From assembly GCA_964454675.1 (NCBI GenBank), contig CAYVUB010000008.1, forward strand, positions 15,250 to 79,249: a stretch of DNA of 64,000 nt, in the 5' to 3' direction. The notes under the pieces were generated by a model that was not told the origin of the DNA, made no database searches, and saw only the letters and a list, made by a program, of their open reading frames with translations. The stretch's first letter is position 1, and each line of letters opens with the position of its first letter. The position numbers and the translations under genes are program-made. This document shows, piece by piece, positions 1 to 17,739 of this stretch. This stretch comes from an uncultured Flavobacteriaceae bacterium. Lineage in GTDB: Bacteria; Bacteroidota; Bacteroidia; Flavobacteriales; Flavobacteriaceae.

Positions 1-646
1 TGGTATAGATACCGCTTTTCTCTACGGATTTCCATTCTACCTTTTCTAAATTGCTAAGGAATAGTATTGGCTGAAACAGATTATCTAATTTTGTTTCTAT
101 TTCATCGTATGCTTCTTCCGGTGTTTTTGAATTGTGGTTAAAAGGGAAATAAAATAGTGTCTCTCCCTTTTTTCTATCCTCACCGTTTGGTGTTAATGCG
201 ATTGGAACAATGTAGTTTTCTAATTTGAAATTGAATTGTTCATCGTAAATGTGTGGTGTGCCACTGTAAGCAAAAACCGCTTTAAAACCAATACCGAATT
301 TCCCAATCTTTTGTTCGTCAATTTTTGTAGAATTACCAATAGAAGTAATGGAATTGATATGCCCTAATTTACCGCCTTCGGAATCTTGTTCTTCATTATC
401 AGGGTCTGAAATAGTAAAACGTACTGAACCATTATGTTTAAACCATAAACCGTCCTCTGTTAAATCAAACTTTACCCAAGTGGCTTTTGCATCATCAGCA
501 TTTTGTAGTAATTCATAAACGAAGTGTGCAGAATCAGAATATTTTTTAATTGCCGTTTCCCAAATACCACGATAGGATTTTTTTAATAAGACTTTTACGT
601 CATTATTTTTTATCTCTTGTAGGGTTGCAAAGTATTGTTGTTCCAT
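1..646 (-). CDS. GHKL (Bergerat-fold) ATPase with sacsin/Hsp90-like N-terminal domain; only the 5' part is present, the ORF continues past the window start
   Basis: Hand translation of the minus strand from ATG (cat at 644-646) gives MEQQYFATLQEIKNND.... It contains the N-box YELLQNADDA and the G-box GKFGIGFKAVF. There is no stop before position 1. It is absent from the ORF track because it is open-ended. Confidence 0.7.
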   Translation of the reverse strand, partial: MEQQYFATLQEIKNNDVKVLLKKSYRGIWETAIKKYSDSAHFVYELLQNADDAKATWVKFDLTEDGLWFKHNGSVRFTISDPDNEEQDSEGGKLGHINSITSIGNSTKIDEQKIGKFGIGFKAVFAYSGTPHIYDEQFNFKLENYIVPIALTPNGEDRKKGETLFYFPFNHNSKTPEEAYDEIETKLDNLFQPILFLSNLEKVEWKSVEKSGIYT

Positions 647-668
647 TGGATTTTTAGATTTGAGATAA

Positions 669-3428
669 TTAGACTTTAAGGTCGCTTACAGAACCCACTA
701 CACGATAATTAACGTCGTCAATTACTGCAAAATGTTTTTCGGCACATTCGATTTTCATTCTTTCGGTATCTCTGAGTAATGTTCTGTCTTTGGCAGCTTT
801 AGGGTCTTTGGTTTCTGCTACGAAATAGATTTTGGTTTCTTCGCCGTCCTCTTTTTTAATCAATGCCCAATCGGGATTATAATTGCCAATAGGTGTTTTG
901 ATTTGAAACTTACCCGGCAGTTTTACATAGAAAATAATATCATCACGGCTATCGCAATCCTCGGCAAATTTCTTTTCAGGACTACTTAGCGAATCAATCA
1001 CTACATAGTTATAAATGGTCTTTGCTTGTTTTTTTACTTCAATCAAATTATCCAAATACTGTTCTATTTCAGCAGCTTCAAACAATTTCATTTCATATAC
1101 CTGCCCTGCGATTTTCTCGTATTCAATACCATTGATTTTTATTCTGTCAAATTCGTGCTTGATTACTCGTACCACGCTATCCATAAACAACTGAGGATTG
1201 TTGAAGATTTCACCTACACGCCCCGACTCTAAAATAATTTTTGTAATAGTGTCTCTTGTAAGTTCTGTTTTGGATTGTATGTACGCTACAAAATCAGGAA
1301 TTTCATAAGCCACTTCTTTAATGGCTTTTACTTTAGAACCTGTTTGTGTACCGCCTATTTCTACTAACCGACCTTCTCTATCTCTTACAAATTTGGTAAT
1401 GTGCTTATCCCTGTAAATTTCAGGCTTCGCAATAGTTTCCATTTTCTTTACAGCATTTGCACAATTTTTTATTAGCTGTTCTGTACTGTAATCTACTTTG
1501 TATTCTGTACGGTATTTTATCTTTTCCCACAACTCTAAGAATAGGGCATCATCTAACCATTTATCTTTTAACTGAACCTGCTTACGCTCTCTTGCGTTTT
1601 TTATTCTGCCTTCAAATTTTACTCCGCAATCTTCTTCAATTTCGCTTTGTAATGCTTTTGAAAAAGCTTCGTAAGATTCATTGGCTATCACTGTAAGGCG
1701 GTTAATTGGTCGGTCTGTATTTCTTGCTCCGCTTTGGTCAACGCATAAACGCAAACCACGCCCAATTTCCTGACGTTTCTTAACATCAGACTTGGTTTCA
1801 TTCAACGTACAAATTTGAAATACATTCGGATTATCCCAACCTTCTCTTAAAGCGGAATGGCTGAATATAAAACGCAATGGTGTATTAATATCCAATAACC
1901 TTTCTTTATCCTGCATTATCAGTTTAAACGTTTCATCATCGGCTTTTGTAGATTTGCCCTCCTTAGAATCCTTAAACTTACCTTTATCCTGACTGAAATA
2001 ACCGTCGTGAACTTGCTCAGGTGTAAAGCTGTATAAACCTCTGTAAGCAGGCATATTTTGCCATTTGGTAAAACTTTCTTCAAACCATTCTGCAAATTTT
2101 CCTTTTACTGCAATACCCTGTTCATCGTAACTTCTATAATTGGCAACACGGTCTATAAAAAATATGGACAATACTTTTATTCCTTTTGCTCTTAATTCTT
2201 TTTCCTTTTTAAAGTGGTTTTCTACAGTAGCATCAACCATTTCTTTTAGTATATGGTCGGTTAAACCGCCTACTGCCTGACCTTTGTACACGATTTGACC
2301 ACTCGAAAATTCTATGTAACCATTATCTGCATCCATTTCATTAATTACATAGCCGTCTTTATAAATATCCCAACCATTGGATAATTTGTATAAATCATCG
2401 CCCACTTTGGCAGATATCTGCTTTTTGTTTACACCGCCTTTTTCGTTTACAAACACCGTAAGCTTTGCGGTAATAGATTGTTTCGCTGTACGAAAACTAT
2501 CTACACTTATAAATGCCCCTGAACTGTCGTTTCTTGATATAACGGAATCTACTTCTATCTGCTTTACTAATCCTAAATCGTATGCTTTAACCGGGTCTAA
2601 CTTGTAAATAAGGTTGTACAGATTTTTATGCGTAGCAGAATAGCGAAGTGTAAATAGTGGATTGAGGTTTGTAATCGCCTTTTTACGAATGTCGGTTTCC
2701 ATATTCTGTGGCTCGTCTATAATTACAATAGGATTAGATTTTTGTATGTACTCAATTGGTTTTACCCCTGTTTCCCTTATCTGATTGATTACATTGGCAT
2801 CCTTTGTAAAACTATCAATATTGATTACCAAAATCTGAATAGCATTACTCTTGGCAAAGTTTCCTAAATCGGTAATTCTGCCTGAATCATATACTTTGAA
2901 TTCAGCAGGTTGGTTTTCGTAGATTTCCTGAAAGTGTTCAAATGTAATTTGAAGACTTTTTAAAACGCCTTCACGAATGGCAACCGAAGGCACTACAATC
3001 ACAAATTTTTTGAAGCCATATACTTTATTCAGTTCGTAAATGCTTCTGAGATAGACATAGGTTTTACCTGTACCTGTTTCCATTTCTACAGAAAAGTTGG
3101 GATAAGGTGCTATAATGGTTTTGCCTTCAACCACACCTTTAATATCTGTATCATCGTTGTACCACAATTTTTCTAATTGTGTGGAAGCATCACCGTTTTT
3201 AAGATTGTTGTTTTCCTGTACTTTGATAAGGTTTGCCGTAATTTCTTCTTCTGTAAGAGTAAGGTTATTGCCTACGCCCGATTCTGTAAATATTAAACTA
3301 CCGCTATTGCTATCGGTAAATGAAAATTCAAAATCTGAATTATTCAAATGCTGCCCTTCCAACAAATCAATTACAGATTGAATGGCTTGTAGTTGGTATT
3401 CTTGATTTTTATCGAATTGTAATTTCAT
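669..3428 (-). CDS. res: Type III restriction enzyme Res subunit (SF2 helicase plus C-terminal PD-(D/E)xK nuclease)
   Basis: 919 aa. Helicase motif I METGTGKTYVY, motif II IIDEPQN, motif III YSATH, motif VI QEIGRGLRL. C-terminal nuclease motif NPDWALI...YFVAETKD. Lies in an operon with a DPPY methyltransferase. Confidence 0.85.
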   Translation of the reverse strand: MKLQFDKNQEYQLQAIQSVIDLLEGQHLNNSDFEFSFTDSNSGSLIFTESGVGNNLTLTEEEITANLIKVQENNNLKNGDASTQLEKLWYNDDTDIKGVVEGKTIIAPYPNFSVEMETGTGKTYVYLRSIYELNKVYGFKKFVIVVPSVAIREGVLKSLQITFEHFQEIYENQPAEFKVYDSGRITDLGNFAKSNAIQILVINIDSFTKDANVINQIRETGVKPIEYIQKSNPIVIIDEPQNMETDIRKKAITNLNPLFTLRYSATHKNLYNLIYKLDPVKAYDLGLVKQIEVDSVISRNDSSGAFISVDSFRTAKQSITAKLTVFVNEKGGVNKKQISAKVGDDLYKLSNGWDIYKDGYVINEMDADNGYIEFSSGQIVYKGQAVGGLTDHILKEMVDATVENHFKKEKELRAKGIKVLSIFFIDRVANYRSYDEQGIAVKGKFAEWFEESFTKWQNMPAYRGLYSFTPEQVHDGYFSQDKGKFKDSKEGKSTKADDETFKLIMQDKERLLDINTPLRFIFSHSALREGWDNPNVFQICTLNETKSDVKKRQEIGRGLRLCVDQSGARNTDRPINRLTVIANESYEAFSKALQSEIEEDCGVKFEGRIKNARERKQVQLKDKWLDDALFLELWEKIKYRTEYKVDYSTEQLIKNCANAVKKMETIAKPEIYRDKHITKFVRDREGRLVEIGGTQTGSKVKAIKEVAYEIPDFVAYIQSKTELTRDTITKIILESGRVGEIFNNPQLFMDSVVRVIKHEFDRIKINGIEYEKIAGQVYEMKLFEAAEIEQYLDNLIEVKKQAKTIYNYVVIDSLSSPEKKFAEDCDSRDDIIFYVKLPGKFQIKTPIGNYNPDWALIKKEDGEETKIYFVAETKDPKAAKDRTLLRDTERMKIECAEKHFAVIDDVNYRVVGSVSDLKV

Positions 3429-4148
3429 TTAACTGCCCTTTTTATATCCAACATTTTCAATTTCTTTAAATATTCCTCTTGCATCAAGTGCTTCTGATAA
3501 TTTAATTACTTTGTAATTACTTTTTACAGCAAATGAATCATCATCATAAGGGGTAAGAGAAGTGTTAATTCCGTATTGTATCATCATATCCCAAGTTGAA
3601 CCGCCTACTAAAGAAAATACTACTTCATCAGCAGTTAATAAGTCTTTTTTTTGAGTATCAAATAAAACACACAAATAGAAGTTCTTTTGTATTTCTCCTG
3701 GCTTTATGGAATTTGAATAAGGACCAATGTTTTTAAAATTTGCATAGTTATTACAGATAGCGAATTTTACCCCTTTGTACGGAAATGAAGAACGCACTTC
3801 AAGTTTTTCGCCGTTACTTAATTGAATGTCTATTTGTATCGAAGCATCAGTAAAGGGGGTAGGCGATGCAATTTCACCAAAAACGGCATTAATAGCTTTT
3901 TCCCAACCATACTCGGCACACAATCCGCCAAAAGAATCTATTATTCTTCTTGAATAATTGCGTTCATATTCACTTTGATTAGCAGCCCCTTTGTTTACAA
4001 TTTTTGCAAGCTGTTCTGCTCTGGAAAGAATGTCTTTGTATTCATCAGAGCCTTTTTTTAACACGCACCGAAGAATATAAAATGAACGCTTTGAATAACT
4101 TTGATTTGGCGGATTTTGGCACTCAATCGTTTCTCTGTTTATTTCCAT
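3429..4148 (-). CDS. Hypothetical 239-aa protein wedged between mod and res; possible PD-(D/E)xK-like fold
   Basis: Intact ORF. Its stop codon directly abuts the res start codon. Segment IQIDIQLSNGEKLEVRSS followed by FYLCVLFD resembles a D...ExK/R nuclease core. I recognise no named family. Confidence 0.6.
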   Translation of the reverse strand: MEINRETIECQNPPNQSYSKRSFYILRCVLKKGSDEYKDILSRAEQLAKIVNKGAANQSEYERNYSRRIIDSFGGLCAEYGWEKAINAVFGEIASPTPFTDASIQIDIQLSNGEKLEVRSSFPYKGVKFAICNNYANFKNIGPYSNSIKPGEIQKNFYLCVLFDTQKKDLLTADEVVFSLVGGSTWDMMIQYGINTSLTPYDDDSFAVKSNYKVIKLSEALDARGIFKEIENVGYKKGS

Positions 4149-4159
4149 AAATAATTAAC

Positions 4160-6040
4160 TTATATTGATTTAAACTCAATGTTATTATCTTGTAGCTTTA
4201 ATTGAATATTGGTTTTTAAGCAATCTTCATTATTAAAAGTACTGTCTAAACAAATGAATTGAGTTGGTTTTAATTCTAATAGCTTCTCTACAACTTTATC
4301 AGAAACTTTTGAAAAGCTGAAACAAAGTTTGTTGTTCATTGTTAAGTACAATAAAGTGGAATCAACTTCTAAAGCAATAACCTTTGAATTAAGAGAAGTG
4401 CCGTTTTTCAACAATAATTCCCATAGTAAATTATATTCTTTACTGTTTTCCTTTTCTGCCTTTTTAAATAAATCTATTTGTAGGTTCAAATTTTCAATAT
4501 CGTCAATGTAAGCCCCTCTCCATATTTTGAAATTTGATGATGATAATTTGAAAAACCTAAAACCTATTGGTTTTTCTTCTTCAAATTTCAACTCTGATGA
4601 ACTGTTTCTTTCTATTGACTTAATTACGTTTGTAAGACGTACTTTAGTAATATCAGAAATAAATTTATACCCATTTTTTGCAGCTATGCTACCTTCTTCA
4701 ACTACTTCTGGCAATTGAACTAAAATGAACTTTAAAGACTTGTTTTCATCTTTATTTAACTCTAAAACCGCTTGTCCTGTTGAACCTGAACCTGCAAAAA
4801 AATCCAAAACATATTCATTGTCGGAATCGCCGATACCTATGTTGATTAGTAGTTTTAAGAGTTCAATTGGTTTTGGATTATTAAAAATGTTGGCAACACC
4901 TAAAATTTGAGTGAGTGCCTGTTTCCCTTGGCTATTCCTTGCCTCATTAAGAAACATTGACCTCGGAACTTTCTTTTTTTCATCTCCATCTTCGGCATTA
5001 AGGTATAGCTTGTATTCAACTGTCCATTTACCTTTAGTATCTTCTCTTATTAAGATTCTATCATCATCTAATGCTTCAAGAAAAGATTTCTCCTCCCATT
5101 TCCATTCGCCAAATAAGTCCGAACCATCAGGCATCTTTATATTATATTGAAGACCTGGTCTTGGGTCATCGGGACGCATTCTGTAAAAAGATTTTGTCTT
5201 ATAAGGACCTAATGTATCATAGTGTTTATCTTTAAATTTGTATTGGGAAATATCAGCTGTATTTAAAGGAAGACGAAGTTTTTGGATAGCGGATAGGTTT
5301 TTTGCATAACACAAAATATACTCGTGATCAACAGCGAAGTATTTAGAATCATTACCGCCTCCTGCGTGTCTTTGCCAAATAATTTCTTGAACATAATTTT
5401 CTTCTCCGAAAATTTCATCCATCAATAATTTAAGATTTGAAATTTCATTCTGGTCAATATTCACGAAAATCAAACCATCATCTTTTAGTAAATTTCTTGC
5501 AAGAAATAAACGGGGCAGCATCATTGATAACCAATTTGAATGAAATTGTCCATTCTCTTTTCTATTAGGTTTAAAAAAACCTTCCTTCATTAAAAATCCT
5601 TCATCGTCTTTTTCGCCTAATCGTTTTAAATATTCTTCTTTGGTTTCAGAAAACTTATCGGGATAAATAAAACTATCAGAACCTGTATTATAGGGCGGAT
5701 CAATACATATAACTTTTATTTTACCATAATAAGATTTTTGAAGCAACTTTAGAACTTCTAAATTTTCACCTTCGATTAAAACATTATCTGAAATATCCCA
5801 ATTTAAAGATTCAGAAACGTTTGGATTTAATGTTGAGGTAGAAGGTGCTTGTAAAACTTTATACGCTTCGTTTTTCCCTGCCCAATTCAATTGGTAGCGT
5901 TCGGTATCGGTATTAATATCTTCACCTAAAAGTTGCTTTAGCTGCTCAATGTTCAGTTTATCTTCGGTAAAAGCACCGGGGATAATTTCTTTCAACTTCG
6001 TAATAAGGTCTTGGGTAATATTGAGTGATTGTCCGTCCAT
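4160..6040 (-). CDS. mod: Type III R-M Mod subunit (beta-class N6-adenine/N4-cytosine DNA methyltransferase)
   Basis: 626 aa. Motif IV ICIDPPYNTG near the N-terminus and motif I VLDFFAGSGSTGQAV about 300 aa later. This is the beta order typical of type III Mod, with a long variable region between the motifs. Confidence 0.85.
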   Translation of the reverse strand: MDGQSLNITQDLITKLKEIIPGAFTEDKLNIEQLKQLLGEDINTDTERYQLNWAGKNEAYKVLQAPSTSTLNPNVSESLNWDISDNVLIEGENLEVLKLLQKSYYGKIKVICIDPPYNTGSDSFIYPDKFSETKEEYLKRLGEKDDEGFLMKEGFFKPNRKENGQFHSNWLSMMLPRLFLARNLLKDDGLIFVNIDQNEISNLKLLMDEIFGEENYVQEIIWQRHAGGGNDSKYFAVDHEYILCYAKNLSAIQKLRLPLNTADISQYKFKDKHYDTLGPYKTKSFYRMRPDDPRPGLQYNIKMPDGSDLFGEWKWEEKSFLEALDDDRILIREDTKGKWTVEYKLYLNAEDGDEKKKVPRSMFLNEARNSQGKQALTQILGVANIFNNPKPIELLKLLINIGIGDSDNEYVLDFFAGSGSTGQAVLELNKDENKSLKFILVQLPEVVEEGSIAAKNGYKFISDITKVRLTNVIKSIERNSSSELKFEEEKPIGFRFFKLSSSNFKIWRGAYIDDIENLNLQIDLFKKAEKENSKEYNLLWELLLKNGTSLNSKVIALEVDSTLLYLTMNNKLCFSFSKVSDKVVEKLLELKPTQFICLDSTFNNEDCLKTNIQLKLQDNNIEFKSI

Positions 6041-6041
6041 A

Positions 6042-6350
6042 TCAGTTTTTTGTTATTCTTTTTTCAGTTTTTTTAAGTGCTTTGTACGCCATAGGTTCTT
6101 CCTCTACAATATTTAGAATTTTATCAGATAGCCATATAATCATCAGTTCTTCTACCGGTACTTCCAATATCGTAGCTATTTTATTCACCTGTTCTTTTTG
6201 TGCCGTTCGCTCTCCACGCTCTATTTTGCTAATGAGTGCCGTGTCTATCTCCAAAGCTGCTGCTACCTGCCGTAGTAACATTCCTTTGGATTCTCTTATC
6301 TGCCGAATGGTTTCGCCAAAAGTTCTGTCGTACATACGCTGACTTGTCAT
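6042..6350 (-). CDS. XRE-family helix-turn-helix regulator, controller (C-protein)-like, first gene of the R-M operon
   Basis: 102 aa. HTH segment LRQVAAALEIDTALISKIERGERTAQKEQVNKIA. Its stop is 1 nt from the mod start. Confidence 0.8.
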   Translation of the reverse strand: MTSQRMYDRTFGETIRQIRESKGMLLRQVAAALEIDTALISKIERGERTAQKEQVNKIATILEVPVEELMIIWLSDKILNIVEEEPMAYKALKKTEKRITKN

Positions 6351-6357
6351 AATCTGT

Positions 6358-6365
6358 CAAATATA
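6358..6365 (-). promoter_or_regulatory. Bacteroidota -7 promoter box TATATTTG only 7 nt upstream of the XRE ATG (near-leaderless transcript predicted)
   Basis: Minus strand reads TATATTTGACAGATTATG, matching the TAnnTTTG consensus. Confidence 0.45.
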
Positions 6366-6452: not shown

Positions 6453-6488
6453 GAAAACAAAAAAGGAAAGCAGCGTACCACTTTCCTT
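6453..6488 (-). terminator. Rho-independent terminator after the DUF3987 gene, insulating the replication genes from the R-M operon
   Basis: Stem AAGGAAAG (6463-6470) pairs with CTTTCCTT (6481-6488), with a 10-nt loop. On the minus strand it is followed by TTTTTGTTTT. Confidence 0.6.
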
Positions 6489-6519: not shown

Positions 6520-8229
6520 TCAGGTTTTCAGGTATTGGTTTTGTTTGTCCCTATGCAGTACTCCTTTTTTACAAAAATCCGTTATGTAACCTTCTGCTGT
6601 TTTATCGGGAATAGCCAACTGCTTTGCAACTGCCAAATAATCTTGCCTGCCAAAAGTATTTGGTAAGGCTTCGTAGAAGCGTTCTTTTTGGTTCTTCCGT
6701 TTTGGTTTGGGTGTTTCTTCAGGAAGTTCAGAGAATACTTTACCGGAATGGCGTACCAATACTTTTACCATTGCAATAGCAGTTTGGAAATCTCGGTTTT
6801 CACAAATCAGTTTAGGTGAAACTTCGCCGTGTTCCATAATACGCAATGCAGTAAGCACCATACATAAGCGAAAAGCAATCAACCCTAATCTGCGAATGGT
6901 AGCCATATAATCTAAACCCTGCAAGGCAATATGTGTACTATGCAAATGGTCAAAGAATTGATTGAATTGCTGCTGCTGTTCTGCTGAAAAGCAAAATTGT
7001 AATTCCGACCCATTGGATAATGTTTGGTACAAATTGAAAAACTCATTGCCTAAGTTTTGGAAATAATCATCTAACCCATTGCTGCTATCAAATGCAAATA
7101 CGTCTTTCCAATCAAGATTTACATTCATAAAATAGAAAATAAACCGACTGAACAAGCCATTTTCCGCATTGGGAATAAGCGTAGCAATTTGCTTGGGTGT
7201 ACCTGAAAGTACGGTTGATAAACAAGGTGCTTCAATGTCTGCATATTCTCTATCTGTACGGCGGTAATAGGAAATGGTTTCGTGGTGAAATGCTTTACGA
7301 AAACCTTCGCTGTAATTGCCATAATCACTTTTGAATGCTTGTGCTAAAGTATCGCCTTCGGTTTCAAACATTAGTCCTCTACTTTCGTTCTCGCTTAATA
7401 ACTGATACACTCCTGTAGTACTATTATTCGCAGGGATGAACAGCATTTTTTCAGGCGGTTTGTTGGGCTTCTCAATATTCGCATCTTTTCCTTTGGCTTG
7501 GTTGTAATCTAACATTTGCATATCGTATTGCTGCTTCAACATTTTGGCTTGCTCCCTTAAATGAAGATGAACTGGTTTTACCAATTGCTTACAATGTAAC
7601 AATCTGCCTTTACCTGCTGATGCCTGGGCGGTAATGAATAAATACAAATTAGCAAAGACTTTTTTGCCGTCATAAATGCCGTATAGCTTATGCAAACAAG
7701 CACCAAGACTAACAATGCTACCTAATATCAACAAATCTTTTTCTTCATCCGATTTTGCAATATTGATAACTGACTTTAAAAATTCAGGAAGATTATTATA
7801 CACCTGTTGCCCTAAAGTTGGTAAAACTTCACGTTGTACTTCTTCTTTGTACTCGGTTGGTATTAATTTTATCCCTGCCTGCTTTGCGTGAAAGAAGAAT
7901 GTTGCAAGGGTAATGCCTGTTCCATTTGCCTGTAAGCATTTATTGAATTGTGCATCACAATCTGTAGCTGTATAATCAGAATAAAAGCGACTAATCCTAT
8001 GAAAATATTCTCTGCCACTTTCACCAAAAGCATCGGCAAAGGCAAAGCCAATATCCCGCCAATCGGCATAAGCAGAAGCAATATCCAAATTCTTAGCTTC
8101 TATTTCCTGAATTACTTTTTCAAGTTGTTCATTGTCCGGCAATACATTTTTCTGTAACTGTACCGGCTCTACCATATTCTGCTTTGGTTTTTCTAACCAT
8201 TCAGAAGGTATAAATTCTTTCTTTGCCAT
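6520..8229 (-). CDS. PriCT-2 / DUF3987-type P-loop protein (primase-associated helicase-like replication protein of Bacteroidota mobile elements)
   Basis: N-terminal ADWRDIGFAFADAFGESGREYFHRISRFYSDY is PriCT-2-like. P-loop-like ITAQASAGKGRL. Start moved to MAKKEF (ATG at 8229), which sits 1 nt after the upstream stop at 8231-8233. The 8316 start in the track would overlap the upstream gene by 86 nt. Confidence 0.7.
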   Translation of the reverse strand: MAKKEFIPSEWLEKPKQNMVEPVQLQKNVLPDNEQLEKVIQEIEAKNLDIASAYADWRDIGFAFADAFGESGREYFHRISRFYSDYTATDCDAQFNKCLQANGTGITLATFFFHAKQAGIKLIPTEYKEEVQREVLPTLGQQVYNNLPEFLKSVINIAKSDEEKDLLILGSIVSLGACLHKLYGIYDGKKVFANLYLFITAQASAGKGRLLHCKQLVKPVHLHLREQAKMLKQQYDMQMLDYNQAKGKDANIEKPNKPPEKMLFIPANNSTTGVYQLLSENESRGLMFETEGDTLAQAFKSDYGNYSEGFRKAFHHETISYYRRTDREYADIEAPCLSTVLSGTPKQIATLIPNAENGLFSRFIFYFMNVNLDWKDVFAFDSSNGLDDYFQNLGNEFFNLYQTLSNGSELQFCFSAEQQQQFNQFFDHLHSTHIALQGLDYMATIRRLGLIAFRLCMVLTALRIMEHGEVSPKLICENRDFQTAIAMVKVLVRHSGKVFSELPEETPKPKRKNQKERFYEALPNTFGRQDYLAVAKQLAIPDKTAEGYITDFCKKGVLHRDKQNQYLKT

Positions 8230-8230
8230 T

Positions 8231-9154
8231 TTATGAAATGTATTTAGGGTTAATGAATACCTCTGCATCGTGTGCAAGGAAACAAGCTCTTGAAACGTCT
8301 TTACCTGAATGGTCAATTTCCAAACCGTAGGTTTGTTTTATGTAGCTTGCTATTGCCCTGAAATAATCCTGATGCGTGGCTTTTGTAATGTCTATTGGAA
8401 TAATCCATTTGATGCCGTCGCCCGAAGGGGAAACAAATAATAATTCTGTATCAAAATAATCATCGTCCAAAAGTTTTACTCTTAATTCAGGAATGTTACT
8501 AATGTGGTCAAAGTCAATGGTAATAAGCCCTGAATGCTTTATTAACGCACTATCTGTTCTTTTGGAAAATGAACCTGAGAAAGTAACATAATCAAATGCA
8601 GACGCCTTGTACTTTCTTGCTTCCTGCTTATCCGAAATGCTTCTTAGCTTTTCAGTTATTGCCTTATTCCTATCACTTTTAAGTAAATGATATACCTCTA
8701 AAAGTGTAAGCGTATTATTTGGATTTGTGTTGGTAACGGGTGCGGAAAAATAGCTGAACGAAGGACAAGGAATTACTTTGGGTGTAGCAATCGGGATTTC
8801 TGTACCATAATGTTCTTTGATAATAGGCGGTACGATTTTACCCAACTTCAAATTCATTTCTTCGTTGAGAAATTTCAATAGTTCAATACCTTCTAATTGA
8901 TAATGCCGTGCAGCAAAATCAAAAACATTTCCCGAAGGGAAATTTCCTTCTAAATCTTCGTGAACCGCTACATTATCTACAATTTGAATGTGCAATGTTG
9001 GTTTATCATTATCAAACGGATTTTTAGTGGGTTTACAGTCCCTTCCCGAAAGGGAAAGGACTGTTTCGCCCGGATAATAATGGGACAAAATCCGTGAATA
9101 AATCTTTAAACCATAATGGGTTTTCCACAATACAGATTTCTTATTTAGTTCCAT
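8231..9154 (-). CDS. BT4734/VirE_N-like primase domain protein
   Basis: 307 aa. ITIDFDH...LLFVSPSGDGIKWIIPI...SGKDVSRACFLAHD matches the pattern of the Bacteroidota VirE N-terminal/BT4734 family. Paired with the DUF3987 gene. Confidence 0.6.
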   Translation of the reverse strand: MELNKKSVLWKTHYGLKIYSRILSHYYPGETVLSLSGRDCKPTKNPFDNDKPTLHIQIVDNVAVHEDLEGNFPSGNVFDFAARHYQLEGIELLKFLNEEMNLKLGKIVPPIIKEHYGTEIPIATPKVIPCPSFSYFSAPVTNTNPNNTLTLLEVYHLLKSDRNKAITEKLRSISDKQEARKYKASAFDYVTFSGSFSKRTDSALIKHSGLITIDFDHISNIPELRVKLLDDDYFDTELLFVSPSGDGIKWIIPIDITKATHQDYFRAIASYIKQTYGLEIDHSGKDVSRACFLAHDAEVFINPKYIS

Positions 9155-10970: not shown

Positions 10971-12077
10971 TTACAAACCAATTTTGATTTTATTTGCAGC
11001 AACCGTTTTCTTTTCATCAATTACATTTGCATAAATCTGCGTTGTTTTCAAATGCCTATGACCAAGCAATTTTGATACAGTAAAAATGTCTGTCCCCAAA
11101 GTAAGTTGCAATGTGGCGTATGTATGCCTGGCACAATGGAAGGTAATATGTTTGTCTATTCCGGCTCTTGCAAGCCAACGGTACAAAGTATGATTGCGAC
11201 TATCGGAATAAACCATATTTGGAAATACATTTTCGCTTCCTTCGCCTCTCTCACCTGTTAGTGTAAACGCTTCATCAGATATTGGCAAAGTTTCAGATCC
11301 TTTGGTTTTCTTTTGTATGAAACGGATATAATGTCCAAGTTCTTCTGAGTGTTGCATTTCACTCCATTTTAATTTTTGAATATCACTAAAGCGCAAACCC
11401 GTAAGGCAACTGAAAAGAAACGCTCTTTTCATAAGGTCATTGCCACATTCTGTTTTGGCTAATCTTTTAACTTCATCCAAAGTGAGGAACTCACGGACCG
11501 GTTCGCCTTGTGGCAATCCTTCAACTGTTTCTCCCGGATTACGATTGATGATACCGTCTTTTACAGCTTGCTTTATTGCGGCTCTGAACTTGTTGAAATA
11601 GCTATTTTTTGTATTAGTAGAAATTTGCGCCCCTGTTTTGGTAACAGCTTTCTTTACCAAATATTCTTTAAAGCCTTCGATAAACTGTTTATTTAATTGA
11701 CTGAATTGAATATCACGTGGGCAATACTTTTTCAGATGCTTTATTGTACTATCCCAATTTCCATAATTACCCATACTATCTTTACGCTTTTCTGCAAGAC
11801 TTTCCATATAAGCAATAAAGTAATTTTTCAACTTCTCTTTATCGTGCAAGTCGTATGTATTGGATTGAATTTCTAAATGTCTTTTACTGCGGATAGTTTC
11901 AGCTAAAGCCAATATCTTTTTGTTCTCCTCCTTTTCAGCATTGGAAAGTTTGCCCTTTTCAGGATTTGGTGTTAAGTACAGATTTAGGTATTCGTATTGA
12001 CGTTTACCATCTGCATAGTATTCGAGATAAAGGCTAATCTTATTGCCTTTTTGGCGTTGGCGTAGGGTTACTTTCAT
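10971..12077 (-). CDS. Tyrosine recombinase / site-specific integrase (Bacteroidota phage-integrase family)
   Basis: 368 aa. Catalytic signature TGLRFSD...HCARHTYAT...LLGHRHLKTTQIYANV (R..HxxR..H..Y). N-terminal KISLYLEYY arm/SAM-like region. Confidence 0.9.
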   Translation of the reverse strand: MKVTLRQRQKGNKISLYLEYYADGKRQYEYLNLYLTPNPEKGKLSNAEKEENKKILALAETIRSKRHLEIQSNTYDLHDKEKLKNYFIAYMESLAEKRKDSMGNYGNWDSTIKHLKKYCPRDIQFSQLNKQFIEGFKEYLVKKAVTKTGAQISTNTKNSYFNKFRAAIKQAVKDGIINRNPGETVEGLPQGEPVREFLTLDEVKRLAKTECGNDLMKRAFLFSCLTGLRFSDIQKLKWSEMQHSEELGHYIRFIQKKTKGSETLPISDEAFTLTGERGEGSENVFPNMVYSDSRNHTLYRWLARAGIDKHITFHCARHTYATLQLTLGTDIFTVSKLLGHRHLKTTQIYANVIDEKKTVAANKIKIGL

Positions 12078-12121
12078 TTCTTTCAGTTATAATAGTTACT
12101 AAAAATCCCAAACAAAATATC

Positions 12122-12211
12122 GGGCAACAAATTCTAATCAGGGCAACAAATATTCAATTTGGGCAACACTATGGCAACAAATATAAGAAAATAAGTGCAA
12201 ATGGGCAACAA
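12122..12211 (+). repeat. Five direct copies of GGGCAACA(A) with helically phased spacing, between the integrase start and the mnmE stop
   Basis: Copies at 12122, 12141, 12161, 12173 (GGCAACAA) and 12203. Successive offsets are 19, 20, 11 and 31 nt. Confidence 0.7.
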
Positions 12212-12277
12212 AAAAGGGAAAGAAAATGATAATTAAATTAATGAAAAACAATCATTTAGTAAACAAAAGAAAGTGTT

Positions 12278-13699
12278 TTACTTTCCGATACAAAAATTCG
12301 CAAATATATTCCCCAACAAATCATCATTGGTAATCTCTCCTGTAATTTCCCCAAAATAATACAAAGCCTGACGAATATCAATAGCCATCAAATCAACAGA
12401 CAAACCGCTTTCCAAACCGAAACGCACTTTTTGGATTTCTTCGAGGGCTTTTAAAAGTGAATCATAATGCCTTGTATTGGTAACTATGGTTTCGTTGTTT
12501 CGTAAAGCTCCTGTGTTTACGAAAGATAAAAGCGTGTTTTTAAGTTCTTCGATTCCGATGTTTTGTTTGGCTGAAATTGTTTCAAGTTTCAAGTTCCAAG
12601 TTTCAAGTTTGGATTTAATGGAATTTAATTCACTTTCTGAAAGCAAATCAACTTTGTTGATAATAACTACAAGTGGTTTTTGTGGATATTTGTTTTTGAT
12701 TTTCTCGATTTCAACTTGAAACCTGAAACTTGAAACTCGTAATTCTTTTGCATCGAGCAAAAGAATTACGACCTGTGCCTGTTCAATTTTCTCAAAAGTC
12801 TTTTGGATTCCGATGCTTTCCACTACGTCTTTCGTATCTCTGATTCCTGCTGTATCTATAAAACGAAAACCGATTCCGTCAATAACGAGTTCATCTTCAA
12901 TCGTATCCCGTGTTGTTCCTGCAATATCCGAAACAATCGCTCTTTCTTCGTTCAGCAGTGCATTTAAGAGTGTAGATTTTCCTACGTTGGGTTCTCCGAC
13001 AATAGCAACGGGAATTCCGTTTTTAATGACATTCCCGACAGCAAAGCTGTCAATCAAGCGTTTTAAGACAAATTCGATTCGGTTTAATAGTTCTTTGAAT
13101 TGTGTTCGGTCGGCAAATTCGACATCTTCTTCTGCAAAGTCGAGTTCCAACTCGATGAGTGAAGCGAAATTCAAAAGTTCTTCACGAAGCTTTGCAATTT
13201 CATTGCTAAAACCTCCACGCATTTGTTGCATCGCAATCTGATGTGAGGCTTCGTTATCGGAATTTATCAAATCGGCTACGGCTTCGGCTTGAGACAAATC
13301 CATTTTTCCGTTCAGAAAAGAACGCAGTGTAAACTCTCCCGCTTGTGCCATTCTGCAACCTTTACGAAGTAACAGCTGAATAATCTGCTGTTGGATAAAC
13401 ACCGAACCGTGACACGAAATTTCCACCACATCTTCTCCTGTATAGGAATTCGGGTTTTTGAAAACCGAAACCAATACCTGATCCAACACTTTTTCAGCTT
13501 GCCCTGAGCTTGCCGAAGGGTCAACGATATGTCCCAAATGAATGGTATGGGTTTTTTGTTTGGTCAAATCTTTATTTCTGACAGAACGAAAAACATTATT
13601 GGCTATAGCAACAGCATCACTTCCCGAAATTCGTATAATAGCCACAGCACCCGCTCCCGAAGGAGTAGCCAATGCAACTATGGTATCTTGGTTAAGCAT
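12278..13699 (-). CDS. mnmE: tRNA uridine-5-carboxymethylaminomethyl synthesis GTPase MnmE
   Basis: 473 aa. G1 GEPNVGKSTLLNAL, G3 DTAGIR, G4 NKVD, C-terminal FCIGK. Confidence 0.95.
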   Translation of the reverse strand: MLNQDTIVALATPSGAGAVAIIRISGSDAVAIANNVFRSVRNKDLTKQKTHTIHLGHIVDPSASSGQAEKVLDQVLVSVFKNPNSYTGEDVVEISCHGSVFIQQQIIQLLLRKGCRMAQAGEFTLRSFLNGKMDLSQAEAVADLINSDNEASHQIAMQQMRGGFSNEIAKLREELLNFASLIELELDFAEEDVEFADRTQFKELLNRIEFVLKRLIDSFAVGNVIKNGIPVAIVGEPNVGKSTLLNALLNEERAIVSDIAGTTRDTIEDELVIDGIGFRFIDTAGIRDTKDVVESIGIQKTFEKIEQAQVVILLLDAKELRVSSFRFQVEIEKIKNKYPQKPLVVIINKVDLLSESELNSIKSKLETWNLKLETISAKQNIGIEELKNTLLSFVNTGALRNNETIVTNTRHYDSLLKALEEIQKVRFGLESGLSVDLMAIDIRQALYYFGEITGEITNDDLLGNIFANFCIGK

Positions 13700-13718
13700 T
13701 ACAAATATAGTTTACCCG

Positions 13719-13726
13719 CAAAAATA
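13719..13726 (-). promoter_or_regulatory. -7 box TATTTTTG, 19 nt upstream of the mnmE ATG
   Basis: Matches TAnnTTTG on the minus strand. Confidence 0.4.
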
Positions 13727-13803
13727 GATAAAATTACTGCGTAACCTTGCTTAAACCATATTTCTTTAGTGTGCCTAAGTTTTATGGTTTCGGTACAACT
13801 TAC

Positions 13804-13811
13804 TATATTTG
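13804..13811 (+). promoter_or_regulatory. -7 box TATATTTG, 20 nt upstream of the TlpA-like gene
   Basis: Matches TAnnTTTG. Confidence 0.45.
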
Positions 13812-13831
13812 TGCATCAAAAAAAATGAAAA

Positions 13832-14986
13832 ATGAAAAAAAGTCTGTTAGTTTTAATCATAGCTGCTGCTGTTGTATCATGTAAAAACAGTGAACCGAAA
13901 GTTGACGGTTTTGTTGTAAACGGAAATGCCGCCGGCGTATATAACGGCATAAGAGCATATTTAAAAATTAAAGATGAGCGCGGCAGAGATATGGTTCTGG
14001 ATTCCGCAATTATTTTTGACGAAAAATTTACATTTAAAGGGTTTGCGTATTCCCCGGAAATAAAGTATTTATCTGTTAACAGCATTCCGGGCGATTTGCC
14101 AATAATCATTGAAAATGGCAATATTACCGTTACCATTGATAAAACAAATTTACAGGATTCTAAAATTGAAGGAAGCAAATCAAATGATGCATTAACAGCT
14201 TACAATGCCGCAACCAAAGTTTTAAATACCGAACGTTTTGAGCTAAATAAAACAGCAAGAGAGCTGCGTACCAGCACAGATACTGTTTCTATAAGAAAAA
14301 ACAATCTTCAAATTAAGGAAAACAGTAAAAAAATCACAGAGTATCCTTTTGAATTTATCCCTAACCATCGTGATAATTATTTCTCACTGATACTTTTAGA
14401 AACATTGCTGAAAGATCCAAATACCGATTTTGAAAAAGTTAACACTTTATTTGAATCAATGGATAATGGTTTAAAAATTTCTCCTCTCGGAATCAAAGTA
14501 AGCGCTCAGTTGTTTACTATAAAAAAAGAAAGTGAACGCGAAACCAATCTGAACATCGGTAAAATTGCGCCCCAATTTTCGGCACCGGATGTTAACGGAA
14601 ACATAATTGCACTCAACGATATAAAAGGAAAAGTCACAATCATAGATTTTTGGGCTGCATGGTGCGGTCCGTGCCGAAGAGAAAATCCCAACGTGGTAAA
14701 CGTGTATAACAAATACCATTCAAAAGGATTGGAAATTATGGGTGTTTCTCTTGACGGTTCTCCAACGCAACATGACGCTAAAGCAGCTTGGGCACAAGCT
14801 ATTAAAGATGATAACCTTACGTGGCATAATGTTTCAAACCTCCAGTATTTTAACGACCCTGTTGCTCAATTGTACAATATAAAATCGATTCCGGCAACGT
14901 ACATTCTGGATCGCAACGGAGTGATTGTTGCAAAAAATTTACGCGGAGCAGCCCTTGAAGCTAAAATAGAGGAATTGCTTAAGTAG
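13832..14986 (+). CDS. TlpA-like thiol:disulfide oxidoreductase lipoprotein (thioredoxin fold)
   Basis: 384 aa. Lipobox AAAVVSC. Active site WAAWCGPCRRENP in the C-terminal domain. Confidence 0.85.
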   Translation: MKKSLLVLIIAAAVVSCKNSEPKVDGFVVNGNAAGVYNGIRAYLKIKDERGRDMVLDSAIIFDEKFTFKGFAYSPEIKYLSVNSIPGDLPIIIENGNITVTIDKTNLQDSKIEGSKSNDALTAYNAATKVLNTERFELNKTARELRTSTDTVSIRKNNLQIKENSKKITEYPFEFIPNHRDNYFSLILLETLLKDPNTDFEKVNTLFESMDNGLKISPLGIKVSAQLFTIKKESERETNLNIGKIAPQFSAPDVNGNIIALNDIKGKVTIIDFWAAWCGPCRRENPNVVNVYNKYHSKGLEIMGVSLDGSPTQHDAKAAWAQAIKDDNLTWHNVSNLQYFNDPVAQLYNIKSIPATYILDRNGVIVAKNLRGAALEAKIEELLK

Positions 14987-15028
14987 GCGCTTGGTTAAGA
15001 GTGTTTTAACCTAAAAACCGAATACAAT

Positions 15029-15322
15029 ATGAATTTACGATTGTTTTTTCTGCTGCTATTTATTGAATCACTTTGTGTTGTTGCCGGAACTTTTGGACTT
15101 ATTTTTCTATTCTTTTTCCTTTTCGGTTCTGGTGCCGGTGCAAGTTCAGATAAAGCAATATTAACTGAAAATATTACGTTAGCCATTTTAACGTTATTGC
15201 CATTGATATTTGGAATTTTTAAATACAGAAATACAACAGAAAAAGAAAAAGCAAAAAGTTATCTATACTCAAGTTTGTTTGTAACAATTGTTAGCGGAAT
15301 TTATTTCGGATTAATAATGTAA
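15029..15322 (+). CDS. Small hydrophobic membrane protein, hypothetical
   Basis: 97 aa with three predicted hydrophobic segments. No motif recognised. Confidence 0.4.
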   Translation: MNLRLFFLLLFIESLCVVAGTFGLIFLFFFLFGSGAGASSDKAILTENITLAILTLLPLIFGIFKYRNTTEKEKAKSYLYSSLFVTIVSGIYFGLIM

Positions 15323-15428
15323 TGGCTCTAACCGCTGACAATAAATAGATTCATTTACACAAAATCAAATTAAGCCTGTTTAATTAGCTATAAAGTAAGA
15401 GTAACAACTCAATGAATCAAAAAAAACC

Positions 15429-16070
15429 ATGGCTGTAAAACACATAAAAAAAAATCTACTCATTTTATTTTTCGGAATTTTAATAGCCTCTTGTTCTTCT
15501 TCAAAAACTGAAAAGAAAAAGATAAGATATTTTAATGAAAAGAATGTAGAAATAAGCGAACCTGAATTTACCCGTATTCGCTCAACAAGAAAATTTTTAT
15601 CCATAGCAGGAGACTCTATAAATCATACAAAATTAATTGTTAGAGAAAACCATGGAGACATAACTAATAATAAAGATTTGAGAGATTTACTTGAAAATAC
15701 AACAAATTTAGAACGGAATCCAAATAAGCCAATTGTTATTATTTACTATCCCGGCAAAGATGCTTGTAACAGTAGCGGATTTACTTATAAAGGGAAAAAA
15801 ATGTGGTATGGGGAACTTGAGATAGGTTTAGATCAAATTGCACAAGTAAAGCCAATTTATATTTACAAAGATAATACCGGACTTAAAAAAAATGATGAAA
15901 CACTAATCTGGCACAAAGACCCGGAAGGCATAATTGAAAGATTATTTTTTAAACATCATTACCCTTGCAATAGTTTCGTCGTTATATCAAAAACGGGGAA
16001 TTTTATCAGTTATTTTGGTGAATTTACTAAAGAGTATGTCTGGGAAGCAACCCAGCGTATGAATAAATAA
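15429..16070 (+). CDS. Hypothetical lipoprotein
   Basis: 213 aa. Signal plus lipobox LIASCSSS. No family recognised. Confidence 0.55.
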   Translation: MAVKHIKKNLLILFFGILIASCSSSKTEKKKIRYFNEKNVEISEPEFTRIRSTRKFLSIAGDSINHTKLIVRENHGDITNNKDLRDLLENTTNLERNPNKPIVIIYYPGKDACNSSGFTYKGKKMWYGELEIGLDQIAQVKPIYIYKDNTGLKKNDETLIWHKDPEGIIERLFFKHHYPCNSFVVISKTGNFISYFGEFTKEYVWEATQRMNK

Positions 16071-16142
16071 GTTTCACAACAACATCTATAACCATTATTT
16101 TAGAACTTATTCCATTTTCTCAATACTCAATACTCATCACCT

Positions 16143-16793
16143 TCAAATCTTCCCTGTTTTATAAAGCACAAACAGGATAACGATAGGCAATGCGAGCAAC
16201 ACAACCATTAACGAACTGGTTTGAAACAATGACGGCGCAAGCATAAGCGTTACCACATAACCACCCAAAGCTCCGCCAAAATGTGCATCGTGACCTATAT
16301 TGCCTATGCGGTTTTTCATTCCATAGATAGAATACAGCAAATAACCAATACCAAAAACATAAGCCGGTATGCGTATGGGTATAAAAAACATATACAATTC
16401 CATACCAGGTTTTAACAAAATAGCCGCATACAAAACTCCGGTCACAGCACCACTGGCACCAACGGCACTGTAATGGTATTCGTCTTTATGAAAATAGAGT
16501 GACAACAAACTTCCCATGACCAGACTCGCAATGTATATAATAATAAAGCTGGTGCTGCCTAAATATGAAATGACCACATCGGCAAAAAAGTAAAGGGTAA
16601 ACATGTTAAAAAACAAATGCATCGTATCTACATGCAAAAACCCAGAGCTGAACATACGCACTTGCTCGCCTCGCCTGATGGCACCGACATTAAATTTATA
16701 CCGCTCAAAAAAACCGTAATCGCCAAATCCTTTGTAAGATATCATCACATTTGCCGCAATAATGATAATGGTAATCAAACTTATATCTCCCAT
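16143..16793 (-). CDS. Rhomboid-family intramembrane serine protease
   Basis: GASGAVTG serine motif and HFGGALGG histidine motif, multiple TM segments. Start placed at ATG 16793. The track start at 16802 is a TTG. Confidence 0.85.
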   Translation of the reverse strand: MGDISLITIIIIAANVMISYKGFGDYGFFERYKFNVGAIRRGEQVRMFSSGFLHVDTMHLFFNMFTLYFFADVVISYLGSTSFIIIYIASLVMGSLLSLYFHKDEYHYSAVGASGAVTGVLYAAILLKPGMELYMFFIPIRIPAYVFGIGYLLYSIYGMKNRIGNIGHDAHFGGALGGYVVTLMLAPSLFQTSSLMVVLLALPIVILFVLYKTGKI

Positions 16794-16817
16794 AACCTGC
16801 AATCTTTTAAAATAATT

Positions 16818-16838
16818 TATCTTTGCACTGCAAATCTA
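16818..16838. promoter_or_regulatory. Two -7 boxes arranged as an inverted repeat (TATCTTTG on plus, TAGATTTG on minus) for the divergent rhomboid and acyltransferase genes
   Basis: Sequence TATCTTTGCACTGCAAATCTA. The core TTTGCA-C-TGCAAA is palindromic. Confidence 0.4.
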
Positions 16839-16848
16839 ATATTTTAAA

Positions 16849-17739
16849 ATGCAATTTCTCGCTTACATCTTAATTTATCCTTTTATCTGGCTCATTTCCA
16901 TTCTCCCGTTTAAATTATTGTATGCGTTTTCTGATGGGCTTTACATACTGCTGTATCACATTATCAGATACCGGAGAAAAACTGTTAAAGCCAATTTAAA
17001 TCTGGTATTTCCTGAAAAAACAGACATTGAAATATCAAAAATCACTAAAACATTTTACCATCACTTATGCGATATGATAGTTGAAGCACTAAAATCGTTG
17101 AGCATCTCTGAAAATGAAATGAAAAAGCGTTTCGTATTTTCTAATATTGAAGAAATCCATAAACTCGAAAAAGCCAATAAAAGTATCGTTCTTATGTGCG
17201 CCCATTATGGCAGCTGGGAATGGATATTTATCCTTCAAAAATACATCAACCATAAAGGCTATGCAGTATATAAGCGACTGGCAAACAAATATTTTGATAA
17301 ACTCATAAAACGCATAAGAGCAAAATATGACAGCTACCTTATTACCACAAAAGAAACCATCCCGACCTTGATTGAAGCAAAAAAACGGGGCGAATTGACC
17401 ATTAACGGTTTTGCGTCAGACCAAACACCTCATATCAGAAAAGCTTTTTATTGGACTGATTTTATGGGAATTAAAGTACCTGTACATACCGGTGCCGAAA
17501 TGCTGGCGAAAAAACTGGACATGGCAGTAGTGTTTTTTAGAGTTAAACGTCTTAAACGCGGGCATTATGAAACCACCTTTGAAACCATCACACTACAACC
17601 CAACAACTATAAGGATTATGAAATTACCGACATCTTTTTACGCTTGGTAGAACAGCAAATCCATGAAGCTCCCGAATATTATTTGTGGACGCACAAACGC
17701 TGGAAATATAAAGACCGTGTGCCTGTAGAATTTCAATAA
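16849..17739 (+). CDS. LpxL/HtrB-family lipid A (Kdo2-lipid IVA) late acyltransferase
   Basis: 296 aa. N-terminal TM segment and HX4E motif CAHYGSWEW. Confidence 0.75.
   Translation: MQFLAYILIYPFIWLISILPFKLLYAFSDGLYILLYHIIRYRRKTVKANLNLVFPEKTDIEISKITKTFYHHLCDMIVEALKSLSISENEMKKRFVFSNIEEIHKLEKANKSIVLMCAHYGSWEWIFILQKYINHKGYAVYKRLANKYFDKLIKRIRAKYDSYLITTKETIPTLIEAKKRGELTINGFASDQTPHIRKAFYWTDFMGIKVPVHTGAEMLAKKLDMAVVFFRVKRLKRGHYETTFETITLQPNNYKDYEITDIFLRLVEQQIHEAPEYYLWTHKRWKYKDRVPVEFQ

Follow-up and report, generated by a model that had tools for sequence, protein, structure and literature searches.

We analysed 64,000 nucleotides (hereafter the window) of the genome of an uncultured Flavobacteriaceae bacterium (GenBank assembly GCA_964454675.1, contig CAYVUB010000008.1, positions 15,250 to 79,249 of the forward strand), at the beginning of which lie the mod and res genes of a restriction-modification (R-M) system belonging to type III and, between them, an open reading frame (ORF) of 239 codons, ORF239. 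Comparison of gene content across related loci establishes that ORF239 is integral to the architecture of the system and no stray insertion, that the gene in the slot between mod and res is swapped together with the specificity half of Mod, and that this layout of three genes is what marks out a clade of type III systems. We advance tentatively, and at somewhat short of an even chance, the proposal that positions 669-6365 make up a controller-regulated, three-gene variant of type III R-M, in which the slot gene encodes a second endonuclease matched to Mod and held in check by Mod methylation. To the wider claim we would give a little less than an even chance: that the whole type III clade is obligatorily three-component, with a hypervariable slot protein, here of an unclassified nuclease family, that is swapped with the target-recognition domain (TRD) of Mod and provides either another means of attack or a fail-safe.

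The ORF list and reads of the sequence give five co-directional genes on the minus strand, as the initial annotation, made from the sequence alone, had described: a gene for an XRE-type regulator (6042-6350, 102 aa), mod (4160-6040, 626 aa), ORF239 (3429-4148), res (669-3428, 919 aa) and the 5' part of a gene for a GHKL ATPase (1-646, with 215 codons visible and the rest beyond window position 1). The gaps between them, of 1, 11, 0 and 22 nt, are exactly those it had reported, and its domain calls for the five proteins agree with the results from Pfam, PADLOC and NCBIfam. Mod matches Pfam N6_N4_Mtase (E 3.5e-36) and, across residues 3-622, PADLOC MTase_III (E 3.7e-170), and its translation shows DPPY and FAGSGS motifs; by these matches it is a full-length type III, beta-class N6-adenine DNA methyltransferase, the TRD of which (TRD type 1) corresponds to the variable residues ~215-400. 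Res matches Pfam ResIII (E 3.4e-15) and RE_endonuc (E 4e-35, residues 803-911), PADLOC REase_III (E 8e-279) and the NCBIfam type III endonuclease model PRK15483 (E 4e-97, under its equivalog cut-off), and shows GTGKT, DEPQ and PD...ETK motifs. On this domain content it is a full-length type III subunit, in which a superfamily 2 (SF2) helicase-like ATPase is followed at the C-terminus by its own PD-(D/E)xK endonuclease domain, and Mod and Res are, by the same token, an intact type III pair. Type III systems are described as two-gene systems (PMC12707154), and the suggestion of the initial annotation that this unit is not of the two-gene kind holds, a 239-aa gene separating mod from res. No account of a third gene in operons of type III turned up in full-text literature searches or in a 2025 R-M review, a coverage outside which REBASE lay.

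Relatives of the system, designated here by locus (L) numbers, share a conserved scaffold, in which Res is ~80% identical and the N-terminus of Mod is also ~80% identical. Block-wise identity shows that the TRD, the C-terminal half of Mod and the next gene vary together, the N-terminus of Mod being conserved and the TRD and C-terminus swappable. TRD1 goes with slot protein X-A, the form represented by ORF239, in the window and in L002-L006; TRD4 (earlier labelled type 2; the type numbers are those of the slot-survey clustering) goes with X-B, ~33% identical to X-A, in L023 and L030; TRD3 is followed by an unrelated protein of 254 aa in L038 and L044, and TRD5 by an unrelated protein of 305 aa in L039. 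To avoid bias, metagenome contigs were searched with Res, and loci were counted when the upstream region was visible. At a Res identity of at least 63%, one or two genes lie between mod and res in 25/25 metagenomic loci, and the genomic loci behave likewise, whereas in the Res clade at 46-47% identity mod is followed directly by res in 6/6 loci. These slot-less loci carry a gene of 250-280 aa 5' of mod. By clustering, nine TRD types correspond one-to-one to slot families that are mostly unrelated to each other: X-A, X-B, the 254-aa and the 305-aa proteins, a 137/142-aa family present in one copy or as two paralogues, a 197-aa and a 226-aa protein, an IS200/RAYT-like protein of 209 aa and, at a more distant locus, a protein of 423 aa with a Fic motif. 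The 137/142-aa proteins had been joined to X by single-linkage BLAST through one 57-aa match (E 3e-4), a membership that the X profile does not confirm, and they are therefore treated as a separate family.

Among 21 type III systems with X (20 genome loci and the window), X identity follows TRD identity (Mantel rho 0.44, p 0.0005) and is uncorrelated with the identity of Res (rho 0.05) or of the Mod N-terminus (rho 0.14). The slot gene and mod also recur in tandem before one Res, as Mod-X-Mod-Y-Res (L052/L053 67-7263) and Mod-260aa-Mod-X-Res (L012 3357-11628), or next to a complete Mod-Res pair, as Mod-Res-Mod-Y (L050 289-7789), arrangements which indicate that Mod and the slot gene behave as a module. 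Most occupants of the slot are small proteins with a motif of the D...(D/E)xK type. Both unrelated slot proteins of 254 and 305 aa, which had no match in the libraries searched, carry D..E-x-K motifs (DIDLW...FELK and DIDTI...VEFK, respectively). The 254-aa family comprises at least 137 clusters, and the model of its representative reached a predicted local distance difference test score (pLDDT) of 91, but only meaningless matches were obtained for it in the PDB, with a template-modelling score (TM) of ~0.16, so that a nuclease fold of this protein is suggested solely by the D..ELK motif. Searches of PDB sequences with four other slot proteins found nothing.

ORF239 itself had no match in Pfam, NCBIfam, PADLOC, PHROG or PDB-sequence searches, profiles of 29 and 119 sequences likewise gave no family assignment, and a search of a phage collection found no relative. 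It has 81 close homologues, from Bacteroidota, Marinimicrobia, Chloroflexota and Proteobacteria, and an exhaustive profile search extends the X family to 285 clusters at 50% identity. An AlphaFold2 model of ORF239 (pLDDT 86, predicted TM 0.87) has a core in the order helix, three strands, helix, strand, in which the first helix bears E79, the second strand D107 and the third strand E117-x-R119; in the model this is the residue layout of PD-(D/E)xK nucleases, with Arg replacing Lys. E79, D107, E117, R119, K149, E152 and K155 are near-invariant in 119 X representatives, and the same seven residues are invariant in all 35 scored loci of the 36 in our genome sample (L017 and L036 gave no ORF in this scoring). 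Foldseek comparison of the model with BFVD returned 14 phage proteins (E 6e-7 to 5.5e-4, TM 0.5-0.7) of ~154-200 aa, mostly ~160-185 aa, two of them named 'restriction endonuclease', and the nuclease families SfsA, DpnII-MboI and DUF234 of Pfam are weakly matched by single X members. ORF239 is a small protein whose fold is confidently modelled and probably restriction-endonuclease-like, with a conserved acidic triad; no NTPase domain is found in it by Pfam. We also considered ORF239 as a small subunit of the BspD6I type, but neither the sequence of X nor its profiles nor its model reached chain 2P14; as the AlwI-like neighbour found at some X loci does find 2P14, homology to the small subunit is rejected.

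The genomic surroundings of X were scored, with the window proteins and Pfam, in 36 species-level genome loci. X adjoins an N6-adenine methyltransferase in 31/36, and in 22 of those the neighbour is of type III: the order is Mod-X-Res in 15 loci, in five X has type III neighbours that are ordered or oriented differently, and two have Mod-X only. X is tightly coupled between mod and res, with gaps of 0-11 nt, and in relatives stop and start codons overlap. Another nine loci pair X with Dam-type N6-adenine methyltransferases; five of these also carry a restriction endonuclease of the AlwI family, the catalytic domain of which aligns to both R.BspD6I subunits, and in the other four an M(-M)-X unit stands between housekeeping or unrelated genes. 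On a conjugative plasmid of Campylobacter coli, an EcoRI-family methyltransferase is paired with X, the two being bordered by a VapC toxin gene and by trb genes, and an archaeal plasmid has the order helicase-DUF4391-X-Mod-Res. Among metagenomic proteins, one is a fusion of X with an EcoRI-like methyltransferase, another, P0103, reads from X into Res, and a third carries a C-terminal S24 peptidase domain. McrB-McrC-X loci (L093 519-4059; L094-L096 3018-6558), which are very common in public metagenome assemblies, have an EVE/DUF8426 domain at the N-terminus of McrB; an intact McrB-McrC-X copy belongs to a cluster of 3447 sequences and a split copy occurs in 582 index blocks. At several type III loci (L008 2081-6066, L048 1575-5620, L080, L081 and L084), an archaeal plasmid being included, a helicase-related protein of ~1070 aa and a DUF4391 protein precede mod, in place of which the slot-less Res clade has its gene of 250-280 aa; this may be another multi-gene variant of type III.

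The XRE gene at the head of the operon matches Pfam HTH_31/HTH_3 (E 5e-11), PADLOC HTH_VI (E 2e-13) and Control_protein (E 1.3e-8). Its promoter/operator region (6340-6365, minus strand) consists of a Bacteroidota-type -7 box, TATATTTG, at 6358-6365(-), followed by TTGACAG and then by the palindrome TGACAAGTCA at 6340-6349. The box is the TAnnTTTG element of the initial annotation; with 99 matches in the window, where 97.9 are expected, the motif is no more frequent than in shuffled sequence, and at this chance frequency only the position of the 6358-6365 box counts. The palindrome occurs a single time in the 64 kb, directly follows the -7 box and overlaps the first ATG of the XRE ORF; it is kept at the same place just 5' of the XRE gene in seven related loci (L002, L038, L039/40, L049, L074 and L085). 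A homologous small helix-turn-helix (HTH) gene lies directly 5' of mod in L002, L018, L038, L039, L049, L054, L074, L077 and L085. A palindrome at the promoter, conserved among relatives, is the arrangement of a controller protein and its operator, and the XRE protein is likely the controller (C) protein of the R-M operon, a C-like repressor/activator and putative autoregulator acting through the palindrome, in agreement with the controller-like role first suggested for it. Since the first ATG falls within the palindrome and homologues have a length of 95-97 aa, translation probably begins at the second ATG, at 6335, from a transcript that may have almost no leader.

How could such an operon work? 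The pairing of X with three classes of N6-adenine methyltransferase, clean two-gene units included, the nuclease-methylase fusion, the predicted restriction-endonuclease-like fold and the mutually unrelated slot families fit what is expected of type II restriction genes. ORF239 would then be a second DNA endonuclease with a target matched to the specificity of Mod, whose methylation would shield the host DNA from it, one methylase thereby serving two nucleases. The first of these would be the ATP-dependent Mod2Res machine, requiring two unmethylated sites in head-to-head orientation; the second would be small and ATP-independent, possibly a nickase or a two-site enzyme, and could attack DNA beyond the reach of type III enzymes, for example DNA with sites in one orientation only. 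The C protein would delay expression of the nucleases once the mobile element enters a new host.

Several observations weigh against this proposal. Type III Mods methylate one strand only, so that an ordinary single-site restriction endonuclease relying on Mod alone for protection would be expected to cut freshly replicated host DNA; the model consequently has to assume that the enzyme is a nickase, requires two sites or depends on the Mod/Res complex. For ORF239 we infer both the nuclease activity and the sequence specificity, the third catalytic-type position is Arg rather than Lys, and Foldseek gave no significant match to the model in the PDB, the best being the methyl-dependent restriction endonuclease NhoI (E 0.11). 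The co-variation of TRD and slot gene was first read as proof of matched specificity and later downgraded, because the swapped tract of TRD, Mod C-terminus and slot gene is contiguous and linkage alone can yield co-variation; moreover, L008 and L010 retain X-A beside unrelated TRDs. Two occupants of the slot, read by eye, are not nuclease-like: the 423-aa protein with the Fic motif HPFDDGNGRTVR (L082 1944-3215) and the 209-aa IS200/RAYT-like protein with an HVHGILIL motif (L067 3815-4444). Five of the 36 X loci are orphans with no R-M gene nearby and intact motifs. Finally, the most abundant X members in gut metagenomes stand in a McrB-McrC-X operon without a nearby methylase, with X often split, and this operon is left unexplained by a Mod-protected nuclease. 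It is for the one-strand methylation, the McrBC-X operons and orphans, the linkage together with L008 and L010, and the non-nuclease occupants that we keep the proposal tentative.

Some of these observations also fit a guarded backup toxin, akin to PrrC and the Rlo proteins, in which the slot protein would be a latent toxic nuclease kept inactive by binding to Mod or Res and freed when a phage anti-restriction factor disables the R-M complex, leading to abortive infection. The slot is always filled, and by unrelated families, as one sees with swappable effectors and with the restriction-linked ORFs that are embedded in hsd loci of type I; the Fic toxin motif of the L082 occupant, the presence of X behind McrBC without a methylase and the inclusion in the cassette of the C-terminal half of Mod, a conceivable binding partner, all point the same way. 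Specific silencing is hard to square, however, with methyltransferase-X units that involve three unrelated methyltransferase folds and with the X-methyltransferase fusion, X has no ATPase or sensor domain, and the orphan copies keep their motifs intact; we consider such a toxin unlikely, though a serious rival.

As another serious rival, though likewise an improbable one, X may be an auxiliary catalytic subunit which, having no specificity of its own, docks on Mod2Res, on an AlwI-type nickase-like enzyme or on McrBC and adds a second site of strand cleavage, as the small subunits do in the heterodimeric type IIS enzymes BspD6I, BtsI and BsrDI. Type III holoenzymes contain one Res, hence one nuclease site (PMC3333885, PMC4005696), and a docking subunit would suit the tight coupling of X between mod and res, with its short gaps and the overlapping codons of the relatives, the five loci in which X lies beside AlwI-family enzymes with a catalytic domain that aligns to both R.BspD6I subunits, the P0103 protein that runs from X straight into Res, and the McrBC-X operon; orphan copies would be harmless. 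Yet a subunit without specificity is expected to be conserved like Res, and instead it is replaced by an unrelated protein whenever the TRD changes; clean methyltransferase-X pairs stand amid unrelated genes, one of them on a plasmid, without a partner nuclease; Res keeps its own nuclease domain intact; and X matches the BspD6I small subunit 2P14 neither in sequence nor in fold.

Still less probable, in our judgement, is a hitch-hiking nuclease, for example a modification-dependent enzyme of type IV-like character, that gathers in restriction loci without a functional tie to Mod. The methyl-dependent NhoI as the top, non-significant fold match in the PDB could be taken in this sense, and neither the McrBC-X operon nor the orphan copies need a methylase. 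But X lies directly beside an N6-methyladenine (m6A) methylase in 31/36 species-level loci, where an m6A-dependent nuclease would be self-destructive, and every locus examined in the Res clade has an occupied slot, which a sister clade lacks.

The remaining gene of the block was proposed in the initial annotation, together with ORF239, as an accessory of the R-M system. For ORF239 a conserved partnership was found, with type III neighbours in 22/36 loci; the GHKL gene is distributed independently. Its part within the window matches Pfam SACS (E 1.4e-13), NCBIfam P_loop_sacsin (E 1e-21) and PADLOC TmtA (E 2e-29), and the gene was completed past window position 1 from an identical contig in a public assembly (L001). 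The full protein has 1614 aa, of which residues 36-822 match TmtA, the Tiamat protein (E 7e-54; model positions 38-808 of 1302), and residues ~1150-1550 correspond to a superfamily 1 (SF1) helicase (AAA_11/AAA_12), with Mokosh MkoA models matched across 1266-1533. With Tiamat it shares the N-terminal sacsin-type GHKL ATPase and the ~800-aa region that follows, as well as genomic autonomy as a stand-alone gene in defence islands; it differs in that the match is limited to residues 36-822 of the 1614 and that the C-terminal third is an SF1 helicase matching MkoA instead. More than 2500 proteins of ~1600 aa make up the family, which occurs in Bacteroidota and Firmicutes. The gene follows res on the same strand, at a distance of ~20-30 nt, in nine distinct loci of several Bacteroidota genera (L001, L002, L003, L023, L038, L039, L044, L054 and L074), which comprise four different TRD/slot cassettes. 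Most mod-slot-res loci have no GHKL gene, among them L004-L006, L030, L049 and L058-L062; in L041, L045 and L046 a homologue (42-62% identity) occurs by itself, amid unrelated genes and away from R-M genes; and in L052/L053 (7295-7519) a remnant of the first 75 GHKL codons behind res indicates that the gene was deleted from an ancestral Res-GHKL arrangement while the R-M genes stayed. Independent distribution, which the initial annotation had itself named as speaking against its idea, makes the GHKL gene a neighbour and no component of the system; judged by homology and distribution, it is a separate, self-contained Tiamat-like defence gene that often travels with the scaffold in Bacteroidota islands. 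A five-gene composite in which XRE, Mod, ORF239, Res and the GHKL-helicase act jointly, with the last as sensor or effector, could appeal to a linkage kept in nine loci across four cassettes, but, given the many mod-slot-res loci without GHKL, the deletability evident in L052/L053, the stand-alone homologues and a large family that includes Firmicutes, and an N-terminal ~800 aa matching TmtA, which defence-system libraries list by itself as Tiamat, we regard it as very improbable, and the five-gene operon of the initial annotation becomes a three-gene R-M system with its controller, beside a separate defence gene.

Behind the GHKL gene further defence genes were seen. In L001 a long prokaryotic Argonaute (13274-15358, 694 aa; PADLOC pAgo, E 2e-231) lies directly 3' of it, followed by a UvrD helicase, and in Mucilaginibacter L039 a SIR2-APAZ and short prokaryotic Argonaute pair (13859-16994) occupies the same place; two different Argonaute systems behind the same gene may reflect a hotspot or a functional link, and a 2026 preprint is said to describe GHKL-Argonaute fusions. 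In L039 (133-2806), SMODS and S_4TM genes, resembling those of a cyclic-oligonucleotide-based anti-phage signalling system (CBASS), and a gene for a type IV secretion system (T4SS) coupling protein lie just 5' of the XRE-Mod-slot-Res-GHKL block; in Mucilaginibacter the scaffold is cargo of a conjugative element. For the window, too, carriage by a mobile element had been proposed, and this is supported: primase/PrimPol-like genes occupy 6520-9154 and a tyrosine integrase (Arm-DNA-bind_5, SAM_5 and Phage_integrase domains) lies at 10971-12077, adjoining the housekeeping gene mnmE, both speaking for the block being cargo of an integrative element. The integrase-mnmE region spans 10971-13699, the island boundary is probably near 12.1-12.3 kb of the window, and no tRNA genes were found in the 64 kb. 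The hairpin and T-tract noted at 6453-6488, between the block and the replication genes, are present at 6463-6488(-), after the upstream primase-like gene; a terminator scan describes an 11-pair stem, a 4-nt loop and a TTTTTGTTTT tail. As terminator-like hairpins in the window are no more frequent than expected (4 against 4.0), this one counts as positional evidence only.

Set beside known systems, the window system resembles classical type III systems such as EcoP15I and EcoP1I in its beta-class N6-adenine Mod with a central TRD, in a Res that combines an SF2 ATPase with a C-terminal PD-(D/E)xK domain, and in mod preceding res. It differs from them in the tightly coupled third gene, in the 5' controller-type HTH gene with its conserved operator, and in that, within its clade, the slot gene is swapped with the TRD and C-terminus of Mod as a single cassette. 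With type II units of the controller-methylase-restriction (C-M-R) order it shares a small XRE/HTH gene that heads the operon and carries a palindromic operator at its promoter, and a small PD-(D/E)xK-like protein beside its presumed cognate methylase, endonucleases of different specificities being mutually unrelated; here, in contrast, a type III Mod, with modification presumably confined to one strand, serves as methylase, a full Res follows, and ORF239 lies outside the restriction endonuclease families of Pfam and PADLOC. Moreover, a type II restriction endonuclease would be expected always to be accompanied by a cognate methyltransferase, whereas X is also found in McrB-McrC-X operons and at the five orphan loci, which have none nearby. 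The heterodimeric type IIS/IIT enzymes R.BspD6I, BtsI and BsrDI likewise have a small nuclease-fold protein encoded beside a larger restriction protein for asymmetric sites, and some X homologues adjoin AlwI-family enzymes, kin of the BspD6I large subunit; X, however, has no detectable homology to the small subunit, lies upstream rather than downstream of the AlwI-like gene and also occurs with methylases only. Restriction-linked ORFs are embedded in type I hsd loci, prrC in EcoprrI and the rlo genes in Campylobacter jejuni, and PrrC and RloC are ATPase-anticodon nucleases. These loci too have extra genes of unrelated families between canonical R-M genes, varying among otherwise conserved loci, but they are type I hsd loci, and ORF239 is a small protein of predicted DNase-like fold without an NTPase domain.

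Type III enzymes have a known weakness, in that they require two head-to-head sites and protect the host by methylation of one strand. A third gene that is nuclease-like and changes in step with specificity would point to an unrecognised layer of type III biology, whether a second activity sharing the methylase, an extra subunit or a PrrC-like guard. The survey defines previously unannotated families, namely X and those of 254 aa, 305 aa and 137/142 aa, as candidate sequence-specific nucleases or nickases, and the set of loci illustrates the movement of specificity cassettes inside a scaffold that stays conserved, on mobile elements of Bacteroidota. The slot pattern extends through the clade, has no annotation and can be tested directly. 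If the wider claim of an obligatorily three-component clade is true, these operons would represent a type III R-M subtype not yet described and the families X, Y, Z and S new restriction-associated nucleases, and the slot protein may cut DNA that carries sites in one orientation, or kill the cell when the complex is inhibited.

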